A stretch of DNA of 64,000 bases from Mobula hypostoma (taxonomy: Eukaryota): NCBI RefSeq assembly GCF_963921235.1, contig NC_086097.1:56484001-56548000 (forward strand). The letters run 5' to 3'. Below, piece by piece: positions 19,255-64,000 of the stretch (its first letter is position 1; every line of letters begins with the position of its first letter). The notes beneath the pieces are model-generated. The model searched no databases. It had not been told where the DNA came from and saw only the letters and a program-made list of their open reading frames with translations. Both the position numbers and the translations under genes were made by a program.

Positions 19255-20273
19255 AAACCATACAGCCCTCATTGCTGGGGGCAAAGCTCCATTCAATACA
19301 GGTTGGCACTTCCACTGTATCCTGAATAATGAACTACCTGACTGGCAGACCACAGTTTGCGCAGCTTCAGAGCTGTGTGTCAGACATGGCTCTAAGCAGC
19401 ACTGGGGTCCCACAGGGGACTGTATTGGCTCCCTTCCTGTTTACCCTGTATACCTCAGACTTTAGATACAACACTGAGTCATGTCATCTGCAGAAATTCG
19501 CTGATGAATCAGCAATAGTTGGGTGTATAAAGGGAGGACGGGATGATGAATGTAAGGACATGATGGATGACTTTAGCAAATGGTGAAAACTGAATCATCT
19601 GCAGCTCAACATCAGTAAAACAAAGGAAGACTAAGCCTGCATTGCTTCCTGTGACTATTGGTGGTCAGGACATGGCTGTGGTACTTGAGTGGAGCACCAA
19701 CATACAGGCTGTGGACAAGAAGGGCCAGGGTCACCTCTACTTCCTGAGGATACTGAGGTCCTTTGGCTTATGCAGGCCTCTCCTTCACATGTTCTACCAG
19801 TCTGTTGTTGCCAGTACAATCATCTTTGCAGTGGTGTGCTGGGGCAATGGCATCAACATGGGTGATGTCAGCAGGCTCAGTAAACTGATTAGAAAGGCTG
19901 GCTTTGTTTTAGGAGACAAACTGGACACACTAGAGACTGTGGTGGAACAAAGGACCCTACAGAAAATCTCAGCAATTCTGGACAATGTTTCTCACTCTCT
20001 GTATGCCACCTTGGCTGAACAGAGGAGCACTTTTAGTAACAGGCTAAGACAACTGCACTGCTCCAAAGAGCGCTATATAAGATCATTCTTACCCTCAGCC
20101 ATTAGGCTCTATAATGAGTCAACCTATAGCCAGGGAAAGGCTGACCCCACTCTTGTTAGACTGCTTGAGGTAACATATTCTTTATTCTTTCTACTTCTCT
20201 TCTAATATTTATATCTGTGCTCTTGTAATGCTACTGAGACACTGTAATTTCCTTTGGGATATAGCTATCTATC
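19255..20273 (+). mobile_element. Rex1/Babar-type LINE 3' portion
   Basis: ORF 19329-19586 (GVPQGTVLAPFLF, QKFADE) and ORF 19642-20205 (RSFLPSAIRLYN). Same family type as 818-1841. Confidence 0.9.
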
Positions 20274-30706: not shown

Positions 30707-31798
30707 TTAAAAACACAAACACGAGGAAATCTGCAGATGCTGGAAATTCAAGCAACACACACACAAAATGCTGGTGAAATGCAGCAGGCCAGGCAGCATC
30801 TCTAGGAAGAGGTACAGTTGACGTTTCGGGCTGAGACCCTTCGTCAGGACTAACTGAAAGTGGGAGGGGGAGGGGGAGATCCAAAATGATAGGAGAAGAC
30901 AGGAGGGGCAGGGATGGAGCCAAGAACTGGACAGGTGATTGGCAAAAAGATACAAGGCTGGACAAGGAAGAGGATCATGGGACAGGAGACCCAGGGAGAA
31001 AGAAATGGGGAGGGGAGCATCAGAGCATACAGTGAGAGCAACAGAGGGAGAAAAAAGAGAAAAAGAAAGGGGGGAATCAATCAATAAATAATGGATGGGG
31101 TAAGAAGGGGAGGAGGGACATTAGCGGAAGTTAGAGAAGTCGATGTTCATGCCATCAGGTTGGAGGCTACCCAGACGGAATATAAGGTGTTGTTCCTCCA
31201 ACCTGAGTGTGGCTTCATCTTTACAGTAGAGGAGGCCGTGGATAGACATGTCAGAATGGGAATGGGATGTGGAATTAAAATGTGTGGCCACTGGGAGATC
31301 CTGCTTTCTCTGGCGGACAGAGCGTAGATGTTCAGCAAAGCGGTCTCCCAGTCTGCGCCAGGTCTCGCCAATATATAAAAGGCCACATCGGGAGCACTGG
31401 ACGCAGTATATCACCCCAGCCGACTCACAGGTGAAGTGTTGCCTCACCTGGAAGGACTGTCTGGGGCCCTGAATGGTGGTGAGGGAGGAAGTGTAAGGGC
31501 ATGTGTAGCACTTGTTCCACTTACAGGGATAAGTGCCGGGAGGGAGATTGGTGGGGAGCGATGGGGGGGACGAATGGACAAGGGAGTCGCATAGGGAGCG
31601 ATCCCTGCAGAAAGCAGAAAGAGGGGGGAGGGAAAGATGTGTTTGGTGGTGGGATCCTGTTGGAGGTGGCGGAAGTTACAGAGAATTATATGTTGGATCC
31701 GGAGGCTGGTGGGGTGGTACATGAGGACAAGGGGCACCCTATCCCTCGTGGGGTGGCGGGAGGATGGGGTGAGAGCAGATGTGCGTGAAATGGGAGAG
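30707..31798 (-). mobile_element. Penelope-like element (Neptune-like), 5'-truncated
   Basis: ORF 31121-31447 is a GIY-YIG endonuclease (VIYCVQCSRCGLLYIGET...RFAEH...RLEEQHLIFRLG). Hammerhead motif at 30816-30851. 9-bp TSD ATTGTGTGT (30698-30706 and 31799-31807). Confidence 0.92.
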
Positions 31799-33769
31799 AT
31801 TGTGTGTAATTTGCGTCCAAACAACAGATTGCCATTTGTAGCCTTTGTTCATACATTGACAAATTTCTGAGCCTTTTTAAAATGGTAATTAATGAAGACA
31901 GTTTCTCTTTGATATTCTGCTTTTAATCTTCCACCAAGCACAATGTCAGCCTACTTCTAACAAGATGTAATTTACTTCCACTTGAATTATCTATCAATGA
32001 AAGAGAATATATTCCTGCCCACACCTCCTGCAGGAAGACATTTGATTCACACCTGGATCAATGCATACAGAGACATTAAATAAAACTGACAAATGCTGTA
32101 CGATGTCAAGTGGTGTCACCCAAGCAGCCTTATCATGGATGACATCCTACAATTTCTGTTTGAAGTTTGATTACAGAATATCAAAGCATGCTCATTACTA
32201 TGACCTGAACGGCTTTAGAAATGAAAAAAGTTTCTTCAACTTTGAAGTATTTTAAGTGTACTTAAAGTAATATTTCCAGCTATTATAACCACTTAACTTC
32301 TGTCACGTTCCGTTTCTTTGTAATGAGGAAAAATATTTGTCTTTCTAAGAAGTTAAAGAAATAAAATACTGAATGTTTTTCAGATACTCTACCAATAGAT
32401 TGATGAATTCCTTGAGTGGTGCAGCCGTAAGTAATTAATTGCAGTATAATCCAGGTTCAGGGTTCATAGTTTGTTCCTAATGAACTTCTCTCAGTTGTGA
32501 TGGGATCATTGATTTCATTTTTTTTAAATCAGCTTGACATCAGACTGACATTCCATGATGGATCAATCATCTGTGCTCTACTGTTGGAATGTTTAGGTGG
32601 GAATCCAGCAAGGATAAACTCAGGCTCAATCTGATTTCCCAAATACTAAATGGTCTCCTAACACTGTGGAATAGTCCTACACCTAACATATTATAAAAGC
32701 TGCAGTGGACACCTATCATAAAGCATTATAATAATTTCTAGTGTGGAGGGGGAACTGAAAAGGGTTTGTGAGGTCAATCATAATGCCTGCACTGCATTAC
32801 TGAGGATATCTGAGTTTGCTGGACTGCACAGACACGAGGAGCTGACACAGTTCTTTTCAGACGCAGCAGGTCTTCCTTTGTATTTGTTTCTGTTTAACCC
32901 ATCAGGAATTGTCACACCTCGCATCTCACTAGAACATAACAAACTGAAGCAGGAACAGCCCATTCAACCCTACAGAACTGCTAAACCTTGCAATAAAACC
33001 ACGGCTGATCTTTTAGCTCAGCCCTTGATTCCCTTAAATCTACAAATCTGAATAATCTCAGGAACCGAATCTCCTTAAACCTCTTGGGCAGAGAATTTCA
33101 AAGATTCATTTGCTTCTGACATTCCTCATTTCTGTCCTGAATTGCAAAAATGACCTCCCGTTCTCAACACCCCAGCCAAAGGAGCTATCACCATTGCATC
33201 AAGTACAGAATATATTTTCTGGTGAGATCATCGTTCAGGGTTAACAATTCCTGACAATCTAGGCCCCATCTGCTTAATCCCCCGTCGCATGACAAATGGC
33301 CAATACCAGGAATCACTCTGGTGACACCTCACCCTCTCACATATGTATACTTACTTCAGGTGAGACAACAGACCCGCGCATAATACTCTCCACAGTTCCG
33401 TATAGTTGCAGCAAGCCGACTGAAATCCTCTTACACTAAAGATTTCTCCTCCTAACTGCTTGCAGAAAGTGAATTTTAACATTTAATAATTGGTGTGCAC
33501 GGACATCCTATTGGCCAAAGCCTCCCACCCACCACCAAACAACCACTTTACTCCAACTTTCTGCACTCTGCCATTAAACAGCAAATTACCTTAATCACAT
33601 GCATTCCAATGTAATTTAATCATTTCTTGTGCACATCGTTAAAGATCTTCTGAAAACACAGATGCACTGTGTCCATTGGTTCCTCTTTACATATTCTGCT
33701 AATTACACCCTCAAAAAACCCTAAACAGATTTGCTAAAGAGAAAAGCCTTAGCTCACTCAACTATGCAG

Positions 33770-40231: not shown

Positions 40232-41239
40232 CAACACACACAAAATGCTGGAGGAACTCAACAGGTCAGGCAGCTTCTCTGGAAAAAAGTACAGTCGACG
40301 TTTCGTGCCGAGACCCTTCGGCAGGACTGGAGAAAAAAAGATGAGGAGTAGATATAAAAGGTGGGGAGGGGGGGATAGAAACACAAGGTGATAGGTGAAA
40401 ATGGGAGGGGGAGGAATGATGTAAAGAGCTGGGAAGTTGATTGGTGAAAGAGATACCAGACTGGAGAAGGGGAATCTGATAGGAGAGGGCAGAACGCCAT
40501 AGGAGAAAGAAAAGTGGGAGGAGCACCAGAGGGAGGCGATAGGAAGGCAAGGAGATAAGGTGAGAGAGGGAAAAGGGGATGGGAAACAGTGAAAGAGGGA
40601 GGGGGGGCCATTACCGGAAGTTAGAGAAGTCAATGTTCATGCCATCAGGTTGGAGGCTACCCAGACGGAATATAAGGTGTTGTTCCTCCAACCTGAGAGT
40701 GGCCTCATCGTGACAGTAGAAGAGGCCATGGATTGACAATTCAGAATGGGAATGGGAAGTGGAATTAAAATGGGTGGCCACAGGGAGATCTTGCTTCTTC
40801 TGACGGACAAAGCATAAGTGCTCAGCAAATCAGTCTCCTAATCTACGTCGGGTCTCACCAATCTTAAGGAGGCCACTCCGGGAGCACCGGACAGAGTATA
40901 TAAATAACCCCAACAGGCTCACGGGTGAAGTGTCACGTCACCTGGAAAGACTGTTTGGGGCCCTGAATGGTAGTGAGGGAGGAGGTGTAGGGACAGGCAC
41001 TTGTTCCGTTTGTAAGGAGGGAGATTAGTGGGAGGGACAAATGGACAAGGGAGTTGCGCAGGGAGCAATCCTTGCGGCAGAAGTTCTGGAGAATTACTGC
41101 TGGATGTGGGAGCTGGTGGGGTGGTAGGTGAGGCCAAGAGGATCAGTGGGGAGGGATGAGTGAACCAGGGACTCTCTCAGCTGCCTGGGCTTTTGTGTGT
41201 GTTGCTTGGATTTCCAGCATCTGCAGACTTTCTCTTGTT
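40232..41239 (-). mobile_element. Penelope-like element with a short inverted 3' tail at its 5' junction
   Basis: GIY-YIG region and 3' UTR on minus (40232 to about 41160), then a plus-strand tail (about 41180-41239). TSD TGTTGCTT(T/C)ATGT at 40219-40231 and 41240-41252. Confidence 0.88.
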
Positions 41240-45715: not shown

Positions 45716-45826
45716 ACAGTATAACTTCAAACAACAGGAATTCTGCAGATGCTGGAAATTCAAGCAACATACATCAAAGTTGCTGGTGAACGCAGCAGGC
45801 CAAGCAGCATCTATAGGAAGAGGCGC

Positions 45827-45862
45827 AGTCGACGTTTCAGGCCGAGACCCTTCGTCAGGACT
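45827..45862 (-). ncRNA. Minimal hammerhead ribozyme motif
   Basis: AGUC-CUGACGA-AGGGUCUCGGCCU-GAAA-CGUC-GACU on the minus strand. Confidence 0.68.
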
Positions 45863-47358
45863 AACTGAAGGAAGAGTGAGTAAGGGATTTGAAAGCTGGA
45901 GGGGGAGGGGGAGATGCAAAATGATAGGAGAAGACAGGAGGGGGAGGGATAGAGCCGAGAGCTGGACAGGTGATAGGCAAAAGGGGATACGAGAGGATCA
46001 TGGGACAGGAGGTCCGGGAAGAAAGACAAGGAGGGGGGGGTGACCCAGAGGATGGGCAAGAGGTATATTCAGAGGGACAGGGGGAGAAAAAGGAGAGTGA
46101 GAGAAAGAATGTGTGCATAAAAATGAGTAACATATGGGGTACGAGGGGGAAGTGGGGCCTTAGCGGAAGTTAGACAAGTCGATGTTCATGCCATCAGGTT
46201 GGAGGCTACCCAGATGGAATATAAGGTGTTGTTCCTCCAACCTGAGTGTGGCTTCATCTTTACAGTAGAGGAGGCCGTGAATAGACATGTCAGAATGGGA
46301 ATGGGATGTGGAATTAAAATGTGTGGCCACTGGGAGATCCTGCTTTCTCTGGCGGACAGAGCGTAGATGTTCAGCAAAGCGGTCTCCCAGTCTGCGTCGG
46401 GTCTCACCAATATATAAAAGGCCACATCGGGAGCACCGGACGCAGTATATCACCCCAGTCAACTCACAGGTGAAGTGATGCCTCACCTGGAAGGACTGTT
46501 TGGGGCCCTGAATGGTGGTAAGGGAGGAAGTGTAAGGGCCCTCCCCCCCCCTCTGCATTCCGCAGGGATCGCTCCCTACACAATTCCCTTGTCCATTCGT
46601 CCCCCCCATCCCTCCCATCCCTCCCCACTGATCTCCCTCCTGGAACTTATCCGTGTAAGCGGAACAAGTGCTACACATGCCCTTACACTTCCTCCCTTAC
46701 CACCATTCAGGGCCCCAAACAGTCCTTCCAGGTGAGGCATCACTTCACCTGTGAGTTGACTGGGGTGGTGATATACTGCGTCCGGTGCTCCCGATGTGGC
46801 CTTCTATATATTGGCGAGACCCGACGCAGACTGGGAGACCGCTTTGCTGAACACCTACGCTCTGTCCGCGAGAGAAAGCAGGATCTCCCAGTGGCCACAC
46901 ATTTTAATTCCACATCCCATTCCCATTCTGACATGTCTATCCACGGCCTCCTCTACTGTAAAGATGAAGCCACACTCAGGTTGGAGGAACAACACCTTAT
47001 GTTCCGTCTGGGTAGCCTCCAACCTGATGGCATGAACATCGACTTCTCTAACTTCCGCTAAGGCCCCACCTCCCCCTCGTACCCCATCTGTTACTCATTT
47101 TTATGCACACATTCTTTCTCTCACTCTCCTTTTTCTCCCCCTGTCCCTCTGAATATACCTCTTGCCCATCCTCTGGGTCACCCCCCCCTCCTTGTCTTTC
47201 TTCCCGGACCTCCTGTCCCATGATCCTCTCGTATCCCCTTTTGCCTATCACCTGTCCAGCTCTCGGCTCTATCCCTCCCCCTCCTGTCTTCTCCTATCAT
47301 TTTGCATCTCCCCCTCCCCCTCCAGCTTTCAAATCCCTTACTCACTCTTCCTTCAGTT

Positions 47359-47394
47359 AGTCCTGACGAAGGGTCTCAGCCTGAAACGTCGACT
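47359..47394 (+). ncRNA. Minimal hammerhead ribozyme motif
   Basis: AGUC-CUGACGA-AGGGUCUCAGCCU-GAAA-CGUC-GACU. Confidence 0.65.
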
Positions 47395-47619
47395 GCGCCT
47401 CTTCCTATAGATGCTGCTTGGCCTGCTGCGTTCACCAGCAACTTTGATGTATGTTGCTTAGTATAACTTCAACACAGTTCTCCACTGCTACAGAGGTTCA
47501 AGCCCAACAAATTTAGCCTTGCTACTTACTGCTAGAGGATAGTGCTGCTCACCAAATGCTGAGTGACAACTTGGAAACAACAAGGAGATTGGGAGAAGTG
47601 GTGAAAAGCGAAAATGTCA

Positions 47620-47960: not shown

Positions 47961-48664
47961 TGAAAGGAGCTGGTTTCATAAAATTTAATGTCACTTTAAC
48001 CTTTATGGCAAATGAGAACTATTGCCGTCTTGAAAATGATTACAAATCAGCCTGCAGCAGATGGCACAGCTCGGTGCCTGTTGCTGTGCGGAGAAACAGG
48101 AGAGTGTCTTTCACAGCCAGATAGACACAGTGACGTGTTTTAATCTGGACCTTTGGAGCAGTGACTCTTCCATTCAGCCAGCAGGTTACCAGCTTCCAGC
48201 TGCTACCTCCACCTGCTCATTTGAATTCAACGATTCACTCGACCACTAACCAAAGTCAACCTGTTGTAAAGATGTGTCTGGAGGCTGGCGAATGATATAT
48301 GACGCAATTTGACCCCTACAATGCAAGCCAGTATGTATCCCCCATTTGAATTATTTCAAGTCTTTCCTAATATAAATCTTTCAGCGTCACTCTCCATTCC
48401 CTTCTCCCTTATATTCTTGTCCAATCTGCCTTTAAATGCTCCAATTTTATTTGCTTCAACTATTCCGGGTGGAATCAATTCCACATTCTCACCACCTTCT
48501 GAGCAAAGATGTCCCTTCAGAATTCCAACTGGATTTCTTACGGACTGCCTTCTTATGATTCTCTCCAGTTATATTCATCTGTACATTCTGTATTTCTCTT
48601 TATATCCACTGTATCAAAATCATTCAGAATTTTAAAAACCTTTATCCGATGCTTTTTCAAGGGA

Positions 48665-50615
48665 CAAACATGAGAAAATCTGCAGGTGCTGGAAATCCAA
48701 AGCAGCACACACAAAATGCTGGAGGAACTCAGCAGATCAGGCAGCATCTATGGAAAAGAATAAACAGTCGATGTTTTGGGCCATGACCCTTCATCAGGAC
48801 TGGAAAGGAAGGGGAGAAGTCAGGATAAGAAGGTGGGGGCGATGAGGAAGAAGTACAAGGTGGCAGGTAATAGGTGAAACCAGGAGAGGAGGAGGGGGTG
48901 AAGTGAAGAGCTGGGAAGTTGATTGGTGAAAGAGATAAAGGACTATAGTAGGGGGAATCAGGTAAGAGAAGACAGCAGACCATGGAAGAACGGGAAGTCA
49001 GAGGAGCACCAGAAGGAGTTGGTGGGCAGGTAAGGAGATAAGGTGAGAGAGGGAAACAAGAATGGGAAATGGTGAAGGAAAGGAGGAGGGGGGTGGCAAT
49101 TACCCGAAGTTCAAGAAATCGATGTTTATGCCATCAAGTTGGAGGGTACCCAGACAGAATATAAGGTGTTGCTCCTCCAACCTGAGTGTGGCCTCATCCT
49201 GGCAGTACAGGAGGCCATGGACTAACATGTCGAAATGGGAATGGGAAGTAGAATTGAAACAGGTGGCCACTGGGAAATCCCGCTTCTTGTAGCGGATGGA
49301 GTGAAGGTGCTCAACAAAGCAATCTCCCAAAACTTTGCCTCCAACTTCCACCCTGCCCTCAAAATTACTTGGTCAATTTCTGACATCTCTCTCACCTTTC
49401 TTGAACTTTCTATCTCCATCTCCTGAGACAGTCAACCTACTCATAATTTTTATGAACCCATTGACTCCTTTCCTCAGCTCCCCTGTTTCTGCCACATCTA
49501 CTCTCAGGTTGAGGTTTTCAACTGAGATGTCCTCCTTCTTCAAAAAAAGGGACTTCCCTTCCTCCACCAACAATGCTGCCCTCACCCGCATCTCTTCCAT
49601 TTCATGCACAGCCGCCCTCACCCCATCCTCCCGCTGCCATACCAGGTTCCTCTTGTCCTCACTTACCACCCCACAAGCATCCAGCACATAATTCTCAGTA
49701 ACGTCCGCCACCTCCAACGGGATCCCACAGCCAAGCACATTGTTCCCAGAGCCCCCTCATTTTCCATAGTGATCGCCCCCTATGAGACTCCCTTGCTCAC
49801 GTGTCCCTCCCCACTGATATCCTTCTTGGCACTTATCCTTGCAAGCAGAACAAGTGCCACACCTCCTCCTTCACAACCATTCAGGGCCCCAAACAGTCCT
49901 TCTAGGTTAGGCACCACTTCACCTGCGAGTCTGTCGTGGTCATCTACTATACAGTATCCGGTGCTCCCGATGTGGCCTCCTGTATTTCGGTGAGACCTGA
50001 TGTAGATTGGGAGACTGCTTTGTTGTGCACCATTGCTCTGTCCTCTGCAAAAAGCGGGATTTCCTGGTGGCTACCCATTTCAGTTTTACTTCCCATTCCC
50101 ACTCTGACATGTCAGTCCATTGCTGCGGAAAGGCCACACTCAGGCTGAAGGAGCAGCAACTTATATTCTGTCTGGGTAGCCTTCAACCTGAGGGCATGAA
50201 TATCGATTTCTCAATCTTCCGGTAATTGTCCCCCCCACCTTCACCATTCCCCATTCTCGTTTCCCTCACTCAGCTTCTCTTCTTACCTGCCCATTACTTT
50301 CCTCCGATAATCCTCCCCCTTCCCTTTCTTCCAAAGTCTGCTGTCCTCTCCTACCAGATTCCCCTTTCTCCAGCCCTTTATCTCTTTCACCAATCAACAT
50401 CCCAGATATTCACTTCACCCCTCGCCCTCTCCCGGTTTCACTTATCACCTACCACCTTGTACTTCTTCTTCCCATCCCCCAACCTTCTTATTCTGAATTT
50501 TCCCCCTCCCTTTCACGTCCTGATGAAGGGTCTCGGCCAGAAAAACCGACTGTTTACTCCTTTCCATAGATGCTGCCTGACCTGCTGAGTTCCTCCAGCA
50601 TTTTGTGTGTGCTGC
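48665..50615. mobile_element. Older head-to-head Penelope-like insertion
   Basis: Minus arm to about 49325 (ORF 49100-49351, RLEEQHLIFCLG). Plus arm about 49330-50615 (RT C-terminus, GIY-YIG, ORF 50007-50225). Degenerate hammerheads near 48767-48801 and 50517-50551. Confidence 0.88.
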
Positions 50616-51176
50616 TTTCTCAAGTGAAGTCTGTTCACTCTCACCTGAAATGTATACCCCTGGATTTCTGATACCAAGTGCAGGAGTGAAAGTTCAACAT
50701 GCCATTCTGCTGCTGTAGAGATTCTACCCAACAAACGTCGCCATGGTCCTTACCACAGGAGGGAACTGCGGCTCATCAGATGCTGGGCGTTACACAAGCA
50801 ACCTGACCAGCTGAAAACAATCGGGAGGAGTGGGAGGGTGGGGGAGACAGAGCTCCAATTTGTGAGAATCATCTGCTTAAAAAAAAAATCATTCTTACAC
50901 TTCTGTCCCTTTTAGAACATCGCAGATCACTATAGGTCAACTGAAGTACTTTTAAGTGTTGTCACTGTTTTAGTGGCATCCACTTAGCAATCAACAAGAT
51001 CCCACATTCCCACAACAGCAATTATGAGCCTAGAGATTTAATGATGTGATTTAAGGGCAACATCTGTGTGCTTCAAGCAAACTCTGAGTCTCAGTTTATT
51101 ACCTCATCCGAATGACAGCACTTCCCACAGTGCAACACAGCCCAGCTCTGCACTGCAGCATCAGCCCTGATTTTGT

Positions 51177-54985: not shown

Positions 54986-55444
54986 GCTCACCACACGCTG
55001 GAGGAACTCAGCAGGTCGGGCAGCATCCGTGGAAATGATCAGTCAATGTTTCGGGCAGCAACCCTTCATCAGGACTGAAGAGGGAAGGGGCAGAGGCCCT
55101 ATAAAGAAGGTGGGGGGAGGGTGGGAAGGGGAAGGCTGGTAGGTTCCAGGTGAAAAACCAGTAAGGGGAAAGATAAAGGAGTGGGGGAGGGGAAGCAGAC
55201 AGGTGATAGGCTTTTATCTTTCCCCTTACTGGTTTTTCACCTGGAACCTACCAGCCTTCTCCTTCCCACCATCCCCCCACCTTCTTTATAGGGCCTCTGC
55301 CCCTTCCCTCTTCAGTCCTGATGAAGGGTTCCGGCCCGAAACGTTGACTGATCTTTTCCACAGATGCTGCCCGACCTGCTGAGTTCCTCCAGCGTGTAGT
55401 GCGTGTTGCTTTGACCCCAGCATCTGCAGAGTATTTTGTGTTTA
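54986..55444. mobile_element. Short palindromic PLE insertion (two inverted 3' ends)
   Basis: About 54990-55177 is the reverse complement of about 55214-55402. TSD CTTTTCCTTTA at 54975-54985 and 55445-55455. Confidence 0.9.
55313..55350 (+). ncRNA. Minimal type I hammerhead ribozyme motif
   Basis: CAGUC-CUGAUGA-A-GGGU-UCCG-GCCC-GAAA-CG-UU-GACUG: 5-bp stem I, full core, 4-bp stem II and a GUU triplet. Confidence 0.75.
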
Positions 55445-56334
55445 CTTTTCCTTTAACTGTAGTACATTTTCCTGCACTCTGCTAAGTACAGTTTTAAAAA
55501 CTTTCTGTTTTTTTATATCTGCTTAGCTAGGTAGAGATGACAAGCAGGATAGTTGAATGCTCCTCATGTGGGATGTGGGAAGGCAGGGAGACCTCCAGTG
55601 TCCCTGACCTCTACAGCTGCGGGAAGTGCATCCAGCTGCAGCTTCTAACAATCCACAATAAAGAGCTGGAGCTGGAACTGGATGAACACCGGATCATTTG
55701 AGAGGCTGAGGAGGTGATAGATAGGACATAGAGAGAGGTAGTTACACCCAAAGTGCAGGACACAGGAAACTAGGTGACAGTCAGAAAGGGGAAAGAGCTT
55801 AAGGAGCCAGTGCAGAGTACCCCTTGGCCATCCCCCTTAACAACAGGCGCATCACATTGGATACTGTTGTGGGGAGGGTGACCTAACAGAGGAAAGTCAC
55901 AGTGGTCGGGTCTCTGGCACTGAGTCTGCCTCTGTGACTCAGCCGGGAAAGGGGAAGAAGAGGTGTACTGTGGCGATAGGGGAATCTTTAGTTAAGGGAA
56001 TGGACAGGAGGTTCTGTGGGCAAGAACGAGATTTCCAGATGGTATGTTGCCTCCGGATGTCAGGGTCCAGGATATCTTGGATAGCGTTCTCAGCATTCCT
56101 AAGCAGGATGGTGAACAGTCTGAAGTCGTGGTCCATGTCGGTACCAATGTCATGGGTAGACAAGTGACGAGGTTCTGCAAAGGGAGTTCAGGGAGTTAGA
56201 TGCTAAGCTAAAGGGCAGAACTTCCAGCATTGTGCTCTCAGGATTACTACACGTGCCACATGCTAGTGAGGCTAGAACTAGGAACTTTACAGAGTTTAAT
56301 ACATGGCTAAGGAGTTGGTGTAGGAGGGAGAGTA

Positions 56335-57009
56335 CAGTCGGCCCTCCGTATCCGCAGGTTCCGCATCCGCGGATTCAACCAGCCACGGATCAAAAGTATT
56401 CGAAATAAAATTCCAGAAAGTTCCAAAATGCAAAACTTGAGTTTGCCGCACACCAAGCACTACGCTGAATCCACGTGAATGACGTGATGTGCAGGCATAC
56501 CCTGCTGTAGCCTCCCACCATTTCACAGATCCTCAGTCTCTCTCCAGCACTCGTTGTTTGAGCATTGTTCACCTCGCATCTCGTTCGTTCACTACTTGTG
56601 TTGTGAGCAAGAGGAAGGAGCTTAAGGCTAGTAAGGGATGGCTGGCTAGCTATGTAAAGCGCCACAGCCTCAAGAACTTAAAGATCACGGGAGGATCAGT
56701 ATCGGCTGATGCCGAGGCAGCATCAGCGTTCCCAAAAGAGCTACGGTGGTTGCGTCTGTACTGAACATGTACAGACTTTTTTTCTTGTCATTATTCCCTA
56801 AACAATACAGTCTAACAACTATTTACATAGCATTTACAGTGTATTAGGTATTATAAGTAATCTAGAGATGATTTAACGTATACGAGAGGATGTGCGTAGG
56901 TTCCATGCAAATACTATGCCATTTTATATAAGGGACTTGAGCATCCACGGATTTTGGTATCCGCAGGGGGTCCTGGAACTAATCCCCCGCGGATACCGAG
57001 GGACGACTG
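56335..57009 (+). mobile_element. Non-autonomous Tigger (pogo/TcMar) DNA transposon with MER2-like ends and a transposase fragment
   Basis: TA TSD (56333-56334 and 57010-57011). TIRs CAGTCGGCCCTCCGTATCCGC / CAGTCGTCCCTCGGTATCCGC. ORF 56489-56764 contains ELKASKGWLASYVKRHSL...SADAEAASAF, typical of the Tigger/CENP-B HTH region. Confidence 0.92.
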
Positions 57010-57994
57010 TATAAGATTTTTGGATCATTGGTCTCTCTTCCAGGAAAGGCGAACGGAACTAAAGAGAAGGTTATTGGGAAACTGAAATGTCTGAAGGTAG
57101 GTAAGTTATCTGGACCAGTTGGTATATACCTCAAAAGTCTGAAAGAGGTGTCTGAAGAGATCGTTGGAGGCATTAGTAACGACCTTTTAAGAATCACTAG
57201 ATTCTGGAATGGTTGCGAAAGACTGGAAAATTGCAAATGTCATTCCAATCTTCAAGAACGGAGCAATGCAAAAAAAAAGGAAACTGTAGGCCAGTTAATC
57301 TTACATTAGTGGTCGAGAAGATGCTGGCGTTGATTATTAAGGACAAGATCTCAAGGTATTTGGAGACACATGATAAAATAGGTCGTAGTCAGCATAGTTC
57401 CCTCAAGGCAAAATCTTGCCTGGCAAATCAAGAAGTAACAAGCAGGATAGACAAAGGAGAATCAACTGATGTTGTGCACTTGGATTTTCAGAAGGTCTTT
57501 GACAAGGTGTCACACATGAAGCTGCTTAACAAGTTACAGGAAAGATGTAGCATGGATAAAGCAATGGCTGATTGGCAGGAGGCAAAGAGTGAGAAAAAGG
57601 GGGCCTTTTCTGGCTGGCTGCTAGTGGTGTTCCATAAGGGTCTGTGTTGGGACCAATTTTCCTTATCTTATATGTCAATGATTTGGATGATGGAATTGAT
57701 GGCTTTGTTGCAAGGTTTGCAGACAACATGAAGATAAGTGGAGGTGCAAGAAGCTTTGAGGAAGTAGAGAGGCTACAGAAGGGCTTGGACAGATTAGGAG
57801 AATGGCCAAAGAAATGGCAGATGGAATACAGTGTCGGGAAGTATATGGACATATACTTTGGTAGAAGAAATGAAAGGATTGACTATTTTCTAAATGGACA
57901 AAAAATACAAAAAACTGAGACACAAAGGGACTTGGGAGTCCTTGTATTTGCAGGCTGAGTCTATGGTGAGGAAGGCAAATGCATTGTCAGCTTT

Positions 57995-58963
57995 CAGGTT
58001 AGCAGGTGTTAAGAGTGGGCTCCCTCACCTCTGTCCCTCTGACCCTCAACACAGGTGCCCCTCAGGCCCGCTCCTTTACTCTCAGTATACCCATGACTGT
58101 GTTGCCACCCACAGCTCCAATCTGCTAATTAAATTTGCTGACAACTCTAAACTGATTGGCCTAATCTCAAATAATAATGAGGCAGCCTAGAGAAAGGAAG
58201 TCATCACCCTGACACAGTGGTGCCAAGAAAACAACCTCTCCCCCAACGTCACAAAAGCAAAGGACCTGGTTGTGGACTACAGGAGGAATGGAGACAGACT
58301 AACCTCTATAGATATCAATGGGTCTGGGATTGAGAGGATGAACAGCTTTCAGTTCCTTGGCATAAACATCACCGAGGATCTCACGTGGTCTGTACATACT
58401 GGCTAAGTGGTGAAAAAGACACAACAGCACCTCTTTCACCTCAGACAGCTGAAGAAGTATGGTATGGTCCCCCAAAATTCTAAGAACTTTCTATAGGGGC
58501 ACCATTGAGAGCATCCTGACTGGCCGCATCACTCCTCCCTTAATCGCAGGGCTCTGCAGAGAGTGGTGCAGACAGCCCAGCGCATCTGTAGATGTGAACT
58601 TCCCACTATTCTGGACATTTACAGAGATAGGTGCATAAAAGGGGCCCGTAGACCCGAGTCACCCCAACCACAAATTGTTCCAGCTGCTGCCATTTGGGAA
58701 ATGGTACCGCAGCATAAAAGCCAGGACCAACAGGCTCCAGGACAGCTTCTTCCACCAGGCCATCAGACCACTTAATTCATACTGATGTTACTGTATTGCT
58801 ATGTTATATTGACTATCCCATTGTACATAATATTTATTACAAATTACTGTAATTGCACATTGCACATTTGAATGGAGATGTAATATAAAGATTTTTACTC
58901 CTCATGTATTTGAAGGATGTAAGTAATAAAGTCAATTCAATTCAATTTAATTCAATTCAATTC
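57995..58963 (+). mobile_element. Rex1/Babar-type LINE 3' portion nested in CR1
   Basis: LLYSQYTHDCV...IKFADNS. AATAAA and an (AATTC)n tail at 58930-58963. Confidence 0.88.
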
Positions 58964-63689: not shown

Positions 63690-64000
63690 TTAGCAAAGAA
63701 AGAGGTGGCTGAAGAGATGCTGGAGGCATTAGTATTGATCTTTCAAGAATCACTAGGTTCTGAATGGTTCTAGAAGACTGGAAAATTGCAAATGTCACTC
63801 CACTCTTCAAGAGGGAGAGAGGCCAGAAGAAAGGAAGCTGTAGGCTAGTTAGTCTGACCTCAGTAGTTGGGAAGATGTTGGAGTCGATTATTAAGGATGT
63901 GGTGTGCGGGTACTTGGAGGCACATGATAAAATAGGCCGTAGTCAGCATAGTTCTCGCAAGGGAAAAACTTGCCTGATAAATCTGTTGGAATTCTTTGAA
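63690..64000 (+). mobile_element. CR1 LINE RT fragment, cut by the window end
   Basis: EDWKIANVTPLFK, LVSLTSVVGKMLESII, GKTCLINLLEFFE. Confidence 0.88.

Follow-up and report, generated by a model that had tools for sequence, protein, structure and literature searches.

The 675-bp element at 56335-57009 of the 64-kb window (the whole stretch of Mobula hypostoma DNA that was analysed, 64,000 nucleotides) is a non-autonomous derivative of a ~2.4-kb pogo/Tigger transposon that has undergone two internal deletions. Judged from sequence comparison, the family of this twice-deleted copy probably entered both a ray host and the placental ancestor horizontally, and would have left in mammals the repeats that we take to be MER2/MER2B. 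A more far-reaching proposal holds that two intact proteins described below, P0001 and P0004, represent the transposase of the autonomous MER2/MER2B parent, since lost from mammals, and that a single Tigger entered rays and the ancestor of placentals at roughly the same date and gave rise to thousands of repeats in the human genome, a link so far undescribed. We regard the case for and against this fuller proposal as evenly balanced.

Anatomy of the element and its insertion site

The element is present as one copy in the window. It lies on the forward strand within an interrupted LINE, with the following features.

55530..56332, + strand: interrupted LINE, left part, ORF1 region (frame runs on across the insertion; no Pfam family in three ORFs)
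56333..56334: TA target site, left copy (sequence; LINE frame regained with one TA removed)
56335..56358, + strand: 5' terminal inverted repeat (TIR), 24 bp (21 of 24 bases match the 3' TIR)
56335..56499, + strand: 5' non-coding end common to mammal-type short forms (11 of 149 two-ended matches; coverage map)
56500..56605, + strand: remaining 5' untranslated region (UTR) of the parent (loose ends in four of four runs; essentially missing from the 149 matches)
56605..56609, + strand: deletion joint 1 (~414 bp gone: 24 bases of UTR plus codons 1-130)
56606..56743, + strand: transposase fragment, codons 131-176 (42/46 against P0004; tblastn; Pfam E = 0.01)
56742..56743, + strand: deletion joint 2 (at least ~1.3 kb gone, from codon 177 to the end of the ORF)
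56743..57009, + strand: 3' non-coding end common to the mammal-type repeat (464 proteins; column majorities)
56986..57009, - strand: 3' TIR, 24 bp (pairs with the 5' TIR)
57010..57011: TA target site, right copy (sequence; LINE frame check)
57012..57955, + strand: interrupted LINE, right part, decayed reverse transcriptase (RVT_1, E = 3e-7 and 0.004)

When the element and one TA were removed, a single open frame extended over the site, and when both TAs were kept a stop codon followed immediately; the element is thus a true insertion with target duplication. Continuity of the flanking LINE, which the initial annotation had named as a check, was established by this frame. We take the LINE to be of the CR1 type. 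Its right part has a related copy at 63698-63983 (82%), and its ORF1 piece had no homologue among 49 candidates. The CpG observed/expected ratio is 0.87 in the element against 0.27–0.29 in the flanks and 0.27 in the window. The TA-flanked 675-bp unit with imperfect TIRs, the many intact CpGs and the internal Tigger helix-turn-helix fragment (about 56610-56745) described in the initial annotation were all recovered, the fragment being placed at 56606-56743.

Of 184 window ORFs of at least 75 aa, 81 were scanned, with matches only to reverse transcriptase, GIY-YIG, integrase and LINE tails; no host gene was found in these 81. The window is a field of retroelements. Long inverted repeats lie at 55000-55390 (178 bp at 96%) and 45762-47459 (781 bp at 98%), in a family with GIY-YIG ORFs that is found also at 30716-31800, 40232-41077 and 48664-50618 and likely consists of Penelope-like elements. 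A second LINE type follows the interrupted LINE at 57985-58640 and occurs also at 19326-20202; its related copy at 19594-20202 has a Pfam ALKBH8_N match, and that model seems to pick up LINE tails.

The parent transposon and its transposase

Three proteins among 84 candidates were recovered with 56609-56743 as query: P0001, a Mobula gene model and a whipworm fragment. P0001 is an intact 607-aa transposase on a 2416-bp contig with the Pfam domains CENP-B_N, HTH_Tnp_Tc5 and DDE_1. P0004, from the same cluster, is also intact (611 aa, 96% identity to P0001), and both have the catalytic triad D194-D308-D341 with a spacing of 32 (DD32D), within the DD29-36D range given for Tigger (PMC7386202). These domains and this spacing, the TA duplication and the 24-bp TIRs (~20 bp in pogo/Tigger, range 8–33; PMC9219625) are pogo/Tigger traits. 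The window fragment, which agrees with P0004 at 42 of 46 codons (tblastn E = 3e-23), belongs to the same family; in contrast to P0001 and P0004, the window copy is without a start codon, codons 1-130 and the entire catalytic domain. The fragment spans the last part of the HTH_Tnp_Tc5 DNA-binding domain and a linker, and Pfam reported HTH_Tnp_Tc5 alone, at an E of 0.01 that is under the model cut-off.

To place the fragment in its parent, the region 56460-56749 was compared with four sequencing runs (X1, X4, X6 and X7), which gave 879, 189, 322 and 141 related pieces, respectively. The internal part had a high copy number in all four runs, summed depths not being taken as copy numbers. Part of the element was carried by 19 of the 22 runs among those listed (9 studies; eight organism labels plus animal skin metagenomes), of which runs with a small share were not counted as evidence of host range. 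Loose ends behind 56597-56609 entered the first codons of a P0001-type transposase in all four runs, and loose ends before 56605 consisted of the codons just upstream of codon 131. At joint 2, past which the compared region reached only 7 bases, loose ends behind 56742 carried on in the transposase (X1, X4 and X7), and the 3' segment of protein P0156 matched from ~56737-56743. From the loose ends at both joints, the element consists, in order, of the 5' end with UTR, a gap of ~414 bp, 46 codons, a second gap of at least 1.3 kb and the 3' end, both gaps being deletions. The parent UTR that it contains stops ~24 bases short of the transposase start codon, and joint 1 appears, from the loose ends, to lie at a short imperfect microhomology. 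The summed parts come to 2386–2398 bp plus any unseen 3' part, near the length of the P0001 contig; we place the full-length parent at ~2.4 kb, and its ends are deduced in the same manner.

Joint 1 was bridged, with at least 31 letters on each side, by other copies (X1 records 2-4 and X7 records 25-26) that are ~10% divergent from the window copy. Its presence in other, divergent copies indicates that this deletion form itself was amplified. No bridging of joint 1 was found among the 8 pieces listed for X4 or X6, where the loose ends show another joint. In these two runs a different deletion form was observed, with the first transposase codons joined to about codon 125, as were variant letters at 56499, 56652 and 56680 that are nearly lacking in X1 and X7. 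The X4/X6 variants suggest that distinct subfamilies occur in different hosts. At 11 or more of the 290 sites compared, 6 of them at CpG, most of the X1 depth was unlike the window copy. The X1 majority letters gave the P0004 residue at all four codons at which the window copy differs; with one new difference, which is also found in Mobula, the agreement with P0004 rose to 45/46.

The initial annotation had assigned an extra ~340 bp of the element to the autonomous parent of MER2. Derivation from a parent was upheld, a parent with an intact transposase having been found, but the extent was not, as 56403 to ~56499 is kept in some mammal-type forms (see below). The part absent from those forms would be about 56500-56740.

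The closest named relatives are Mobula GTF2IRD2-like gene models, which are 86–89% identical to P0004 residues 1-190. Six such models were noted in two assemblies (P0002 and P0005-P0009). In the three that were inspected (P0002, P0005 and P0006), the N-terminal ~190 residues comprise the whole Tigger DNA-binding part and are followed by GTF2I repeats and a hAT-like tail; this Tigger-GTF2IRD2 fusion reflects either capture of an exon or an error in the gene models. A quick tree of 54 rows, built by a short search with no bootstrap and no MER2-side sequence (50 of 120 listed homologues together with P0001, P0004 and two pieces from Mobula), placed the P0001/P0004 family as sister to a skink group (73–75% identity), then to whipworm elements, and placed the elephant, dugong, opossum and lizard proteins in another clade. 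On this quick tree the placement of the P0001/P0004 family appears to depart from host phylogeny, and none of the relatives in it is near enough to be the donor. The afrotherian proteins P0016 and P0027, which differ from P0001/P0004 in that they form a separate clade and reach only 61–63% protein identity, are presumably Tigger7-like; among the matches listed, no mammalian transposase exceeded this level (elephant and dugong). Members of the skink group (P0010 from Tiliqua scincoides, P0011 and P0012) have lost two catalytic aspartates and kept a full ORF, and two of them carry a long acidic repeat ahead of the transposase. The skink relative is likely a domesticated gene.

Other searches for the family were negative. 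Patterns of the 3'-end DNA gave nothing in the genome contigs or viral contigs searched; an exact 20-base match in a bacterial bin did not extend and was dismissed as chance. The element had no blastn match in plasmids and phages and no match in Rfam. A metagenome scan with P0001 returned 77 loci, which were all distantly related and showed no DNA similarity to the element, and the best ESM Atlas score (0.81) was uninformative.

Translated copies of a mammal-type repeat

Because gene callers translate repeats, the stop-free non-coding 3' frame 56877-57008 was searched as a proxy for mammalian copies. It matched 464 predicted proteins at E up to 0.001. The best 150 of the 464 were fetched and, after a 1404-aa repetitive protein (P0129) was left out, 149 were analysed; these rows were picked by likeness to the window and by open frames, which raises their identity to the window, and the protein proxy is blind to synonymous sites. 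Public collections thus contain hundreds of spurious predicted proteins that are translations of this non-coding repeat, and such translations are usable as a proxy for repeat distribution. One of the 20 matches looked up had a name, P0210 (KAL0616128.1), a gene model of the titi monkey Plecturocebus cupreus, and 3 of 118 flanks matched the flank of this model (E = 6e-16 to 1e-8). The flanks of the monkey model and of like matches are presumably Alu translations; Pfam at E up to 0.01 found nothing in 15 matched proteins.

The 149 matches covered 56336 to ~56499 and ~56737-57009, and 56510-56734 was covered by none of them. Although the matches were chosen on the 3' end alone, 11 of the 149 carried both ends in one short frame, and their 5' match exceeded all of 100 shuffles. 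The estimated length of these two-ended forms was 162–350 bp (312–350 bp in 7 of the 11), and mammal-type short forms departed from the 5' end at varying points between ~56402 and ~56499 in the coverage map. Scores of four matches to the middle segment were equalled by 3–4 of 100 shuffles each, which among 149 is chance.

Among 65 codons with at least 10 rows, the majority of the matches equalled the window in 54, 4 differed by CpG decay and 7 otherwise. With CpG decay set aside, the window and the majority of the 149 differ at 7 or more of 195 bases, counted at residue-changing sites; of these 7, one is imposed by a stop codon that the window carries, and another falls in an edge column with 10 rows. 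Changes at roughly three quarters of sites can be seen by this route, from which we estimate ~95% identity between the single, decayed window copy and the ancestor of the matches. Over 138 rows, median identity was 64.7% from match to window, 57.1% from match to match and 70.6% from match to the matches' own majority, with no match reaching 85% identity to the window. Simulated DNA divergence of 18.5% corresponded to a median of 64.6%, an exact fit that should not be over-read. Eight matches with Alu-like flanks gave the same picture (30/36 codons). The MER2-like ends described in the initial annotation are therefore seen, by translated-frame proxy, as matches of both ends to a decayed primate-type repeat, and its proposal that the same transposon invaded both lineages is supported.

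The mammal-type repeat is presumably MER2, which it matches in size, the comparison having been made by translated frames rather than with a DNA consensus. MER2 and MER2B are listed in PMC5753468 and belong to the non-autonomous, Mariner/Tigger-type elements found in placentals. They are 345 and 336 bp long, and human MER2 copies have a median divergence of 18.5% from consensus (supplement of PMC1914374). MER2 is annotated in human, chimpanzee, rhesus, cow, rat and mouse (medians 18.5–28%), was active near the split of placental orders, and accounts for ~8,400 fragments in the human genome (PMC1914374). By proxy, the ends of the window element match a primate-type repeat of such size at a divergence fitting 18.5%. 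In contrast to MER2/MER2B, the window element is 675 bp long, retains more 5' UTR and 46 transposase codons, has other joints and mostly intact CpGs, and stands in a non-mammalian context. Its length and these codons mark it as a sister derivative rather than a copy of MER2 itself.

Probable horizontal transfer, alternatives and significance

In the mechanism that we propose, the parent transposase would bind the TIRs, excise the element and paste it into TA sites; gap repair interrupted at short microhomologies would yield deletion forms, which would then be moved in trans by the parent enzyme. Binding of TIRs, excision, insertion at TA and mobilisation of deleted copies in trans are described for pogo/Tigger transposases (PMC1914374). 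Deletion forms particular to each host lineage imply that each likely harboured an active complete element rather than a miniature alone; on the mammal side this would follow from the several distinct short forms. The near-identical non-coding ends favour transfer over descent. An intact enzyme of the family survives and was likely lost by mammals. The mutation rate of sharks is 7e-10 per base per generation (PMC10587355), and with such slow mutation a decay of a few percent in rays is compatible with a similar age, while giving no date.

Similar events and similar pairs of parent and derivative are on record. SPIN, a hAT transposon of few lineages, likewise has near-identical non-coding ends in distant vertebrates and lineage-specific deletion derivatives; in contrast, the window element is a Tigger, would go back to the early radiation of placental mammals and involves the human lineage. 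Horizontally transferred mammalian DNA transposons such as SPIN are cited in PMC3525145. Tigger7 with MER44A-D shows the same pattern of a parent with deletion derivatives (PMC5753468; PMC1914374), and the presumably Tigger7-like proteins P0016 and P0027 fall in an adjacent clade of the quick tree. In the accessible parts of PMC5753468, MER2 and MER2B are placed under Mariner/Tc1, and a parent is named for MER44 and none for MER2 or MER2B. Tigger transfer between eutherians and two sharks has already been claimed (PMC9219625), with the same transposon group and the same pair of host classes as here. However, the five chondrichthyan elements in that study have other TIR motifs, neither 12-base TIR motif of the window element occurs in the portion of its supplement available, and its mammal-shark distances of 0.65–0.70 (four rows) denote transfers far older or weaker than that of the window element. 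No description of a mammal-ray MER2/Tigger link was found among the literature listings searched, and Repbase, Dfam or subscription journals may hold one; the link is absent from the accessible parts of PMC9004415, PMC6887750, PMC8277862 and PMC3525145, and the main text of PMC7070016, as far as available, has no word for sharks or cartilaginous fish.

An unlikely alternative is that separate donors gave rays and mammals two closely related sister families, or that the mammal repeat is a Tigger miniature other than MER2. In that case the mammalian copies would have been mobilised by another enzyme, to which the P0004 type is closely related; transfer would still be involved, and the claim to a parent would be weaker. 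This reading draws on three core codons that differ consistently between window and matches (56901, 56904 and 56979), on the existence of subfamilies, as seen from the X4 and X6 letters at 56652 and 56680, and on the derivation of the MER2 name from a match in size. However, the differences private to the window copy in the 290 internal bases, by reference to the X1 majority, are about as many as those separating it from the matched-protein majority, so that the two family ancestors could be nearly identical, and a single parent accommodates both ends and several joint positions.

Shared ends through vertical descent with slow change are very improbable, because an estimated 95% identity in A+T-rich non-coding ends would require near stasis over the ~350 million earlier years. 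The slow mutation of sharks, the occurrence of the element under at least eight organism labels among the runs listed, and the pre-amniote Tigger fossils known in human (five listed in PMC9004415) would all be in keeping with descent, but slow rays do not slow mammals, in which MER2 copies have decayed by 18.5% (human) to 28% (rodents) after a burst around the time when the placental orders separated (PMC1914374). Outside rays, moreover, no named transposase among the matches listed comes closer than those of skink, elephant and dugong given above. Mammalian contamination or an assembly artefact, suggested by primate-like ends and a single copy in the window, can be given hardly any weight: the LINE frame is split exactly at the duplicated TA, the element keeps CpGs that are decayed in the matches, ~240 bp of it is matched by none of the 149 proteins beyond chance, and the internal part is abundant in all the runs examined, with none of 138 matches reaching 85% identity to the window.

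Horizontal entry of one Tigger family into rays and placental mammals, the reading we prefer, would be a further case of horizontal movement of a DNA transposon, a kind of event already known, and its mechanism of cut-and-paste with deletion derivatives is itself ordinary. Mammals or birds are involved in 24 of at least 975 vertebrate transfer events (PMC7070016), so that transfers involving mammals are rare in surveys. What it adds is a candidate for the intact parent of a repeat family present on the human lineage. If true, a near-identical family in cartilaginous fish would mean that the MER2 wave came from outside; a family for which PMC1914374 and PMC5753468, in their accessible parts, name no parent would gain one with an intact enzyme; and rays and mammals would share a common starting sequence from which their neutral rates could be compared.
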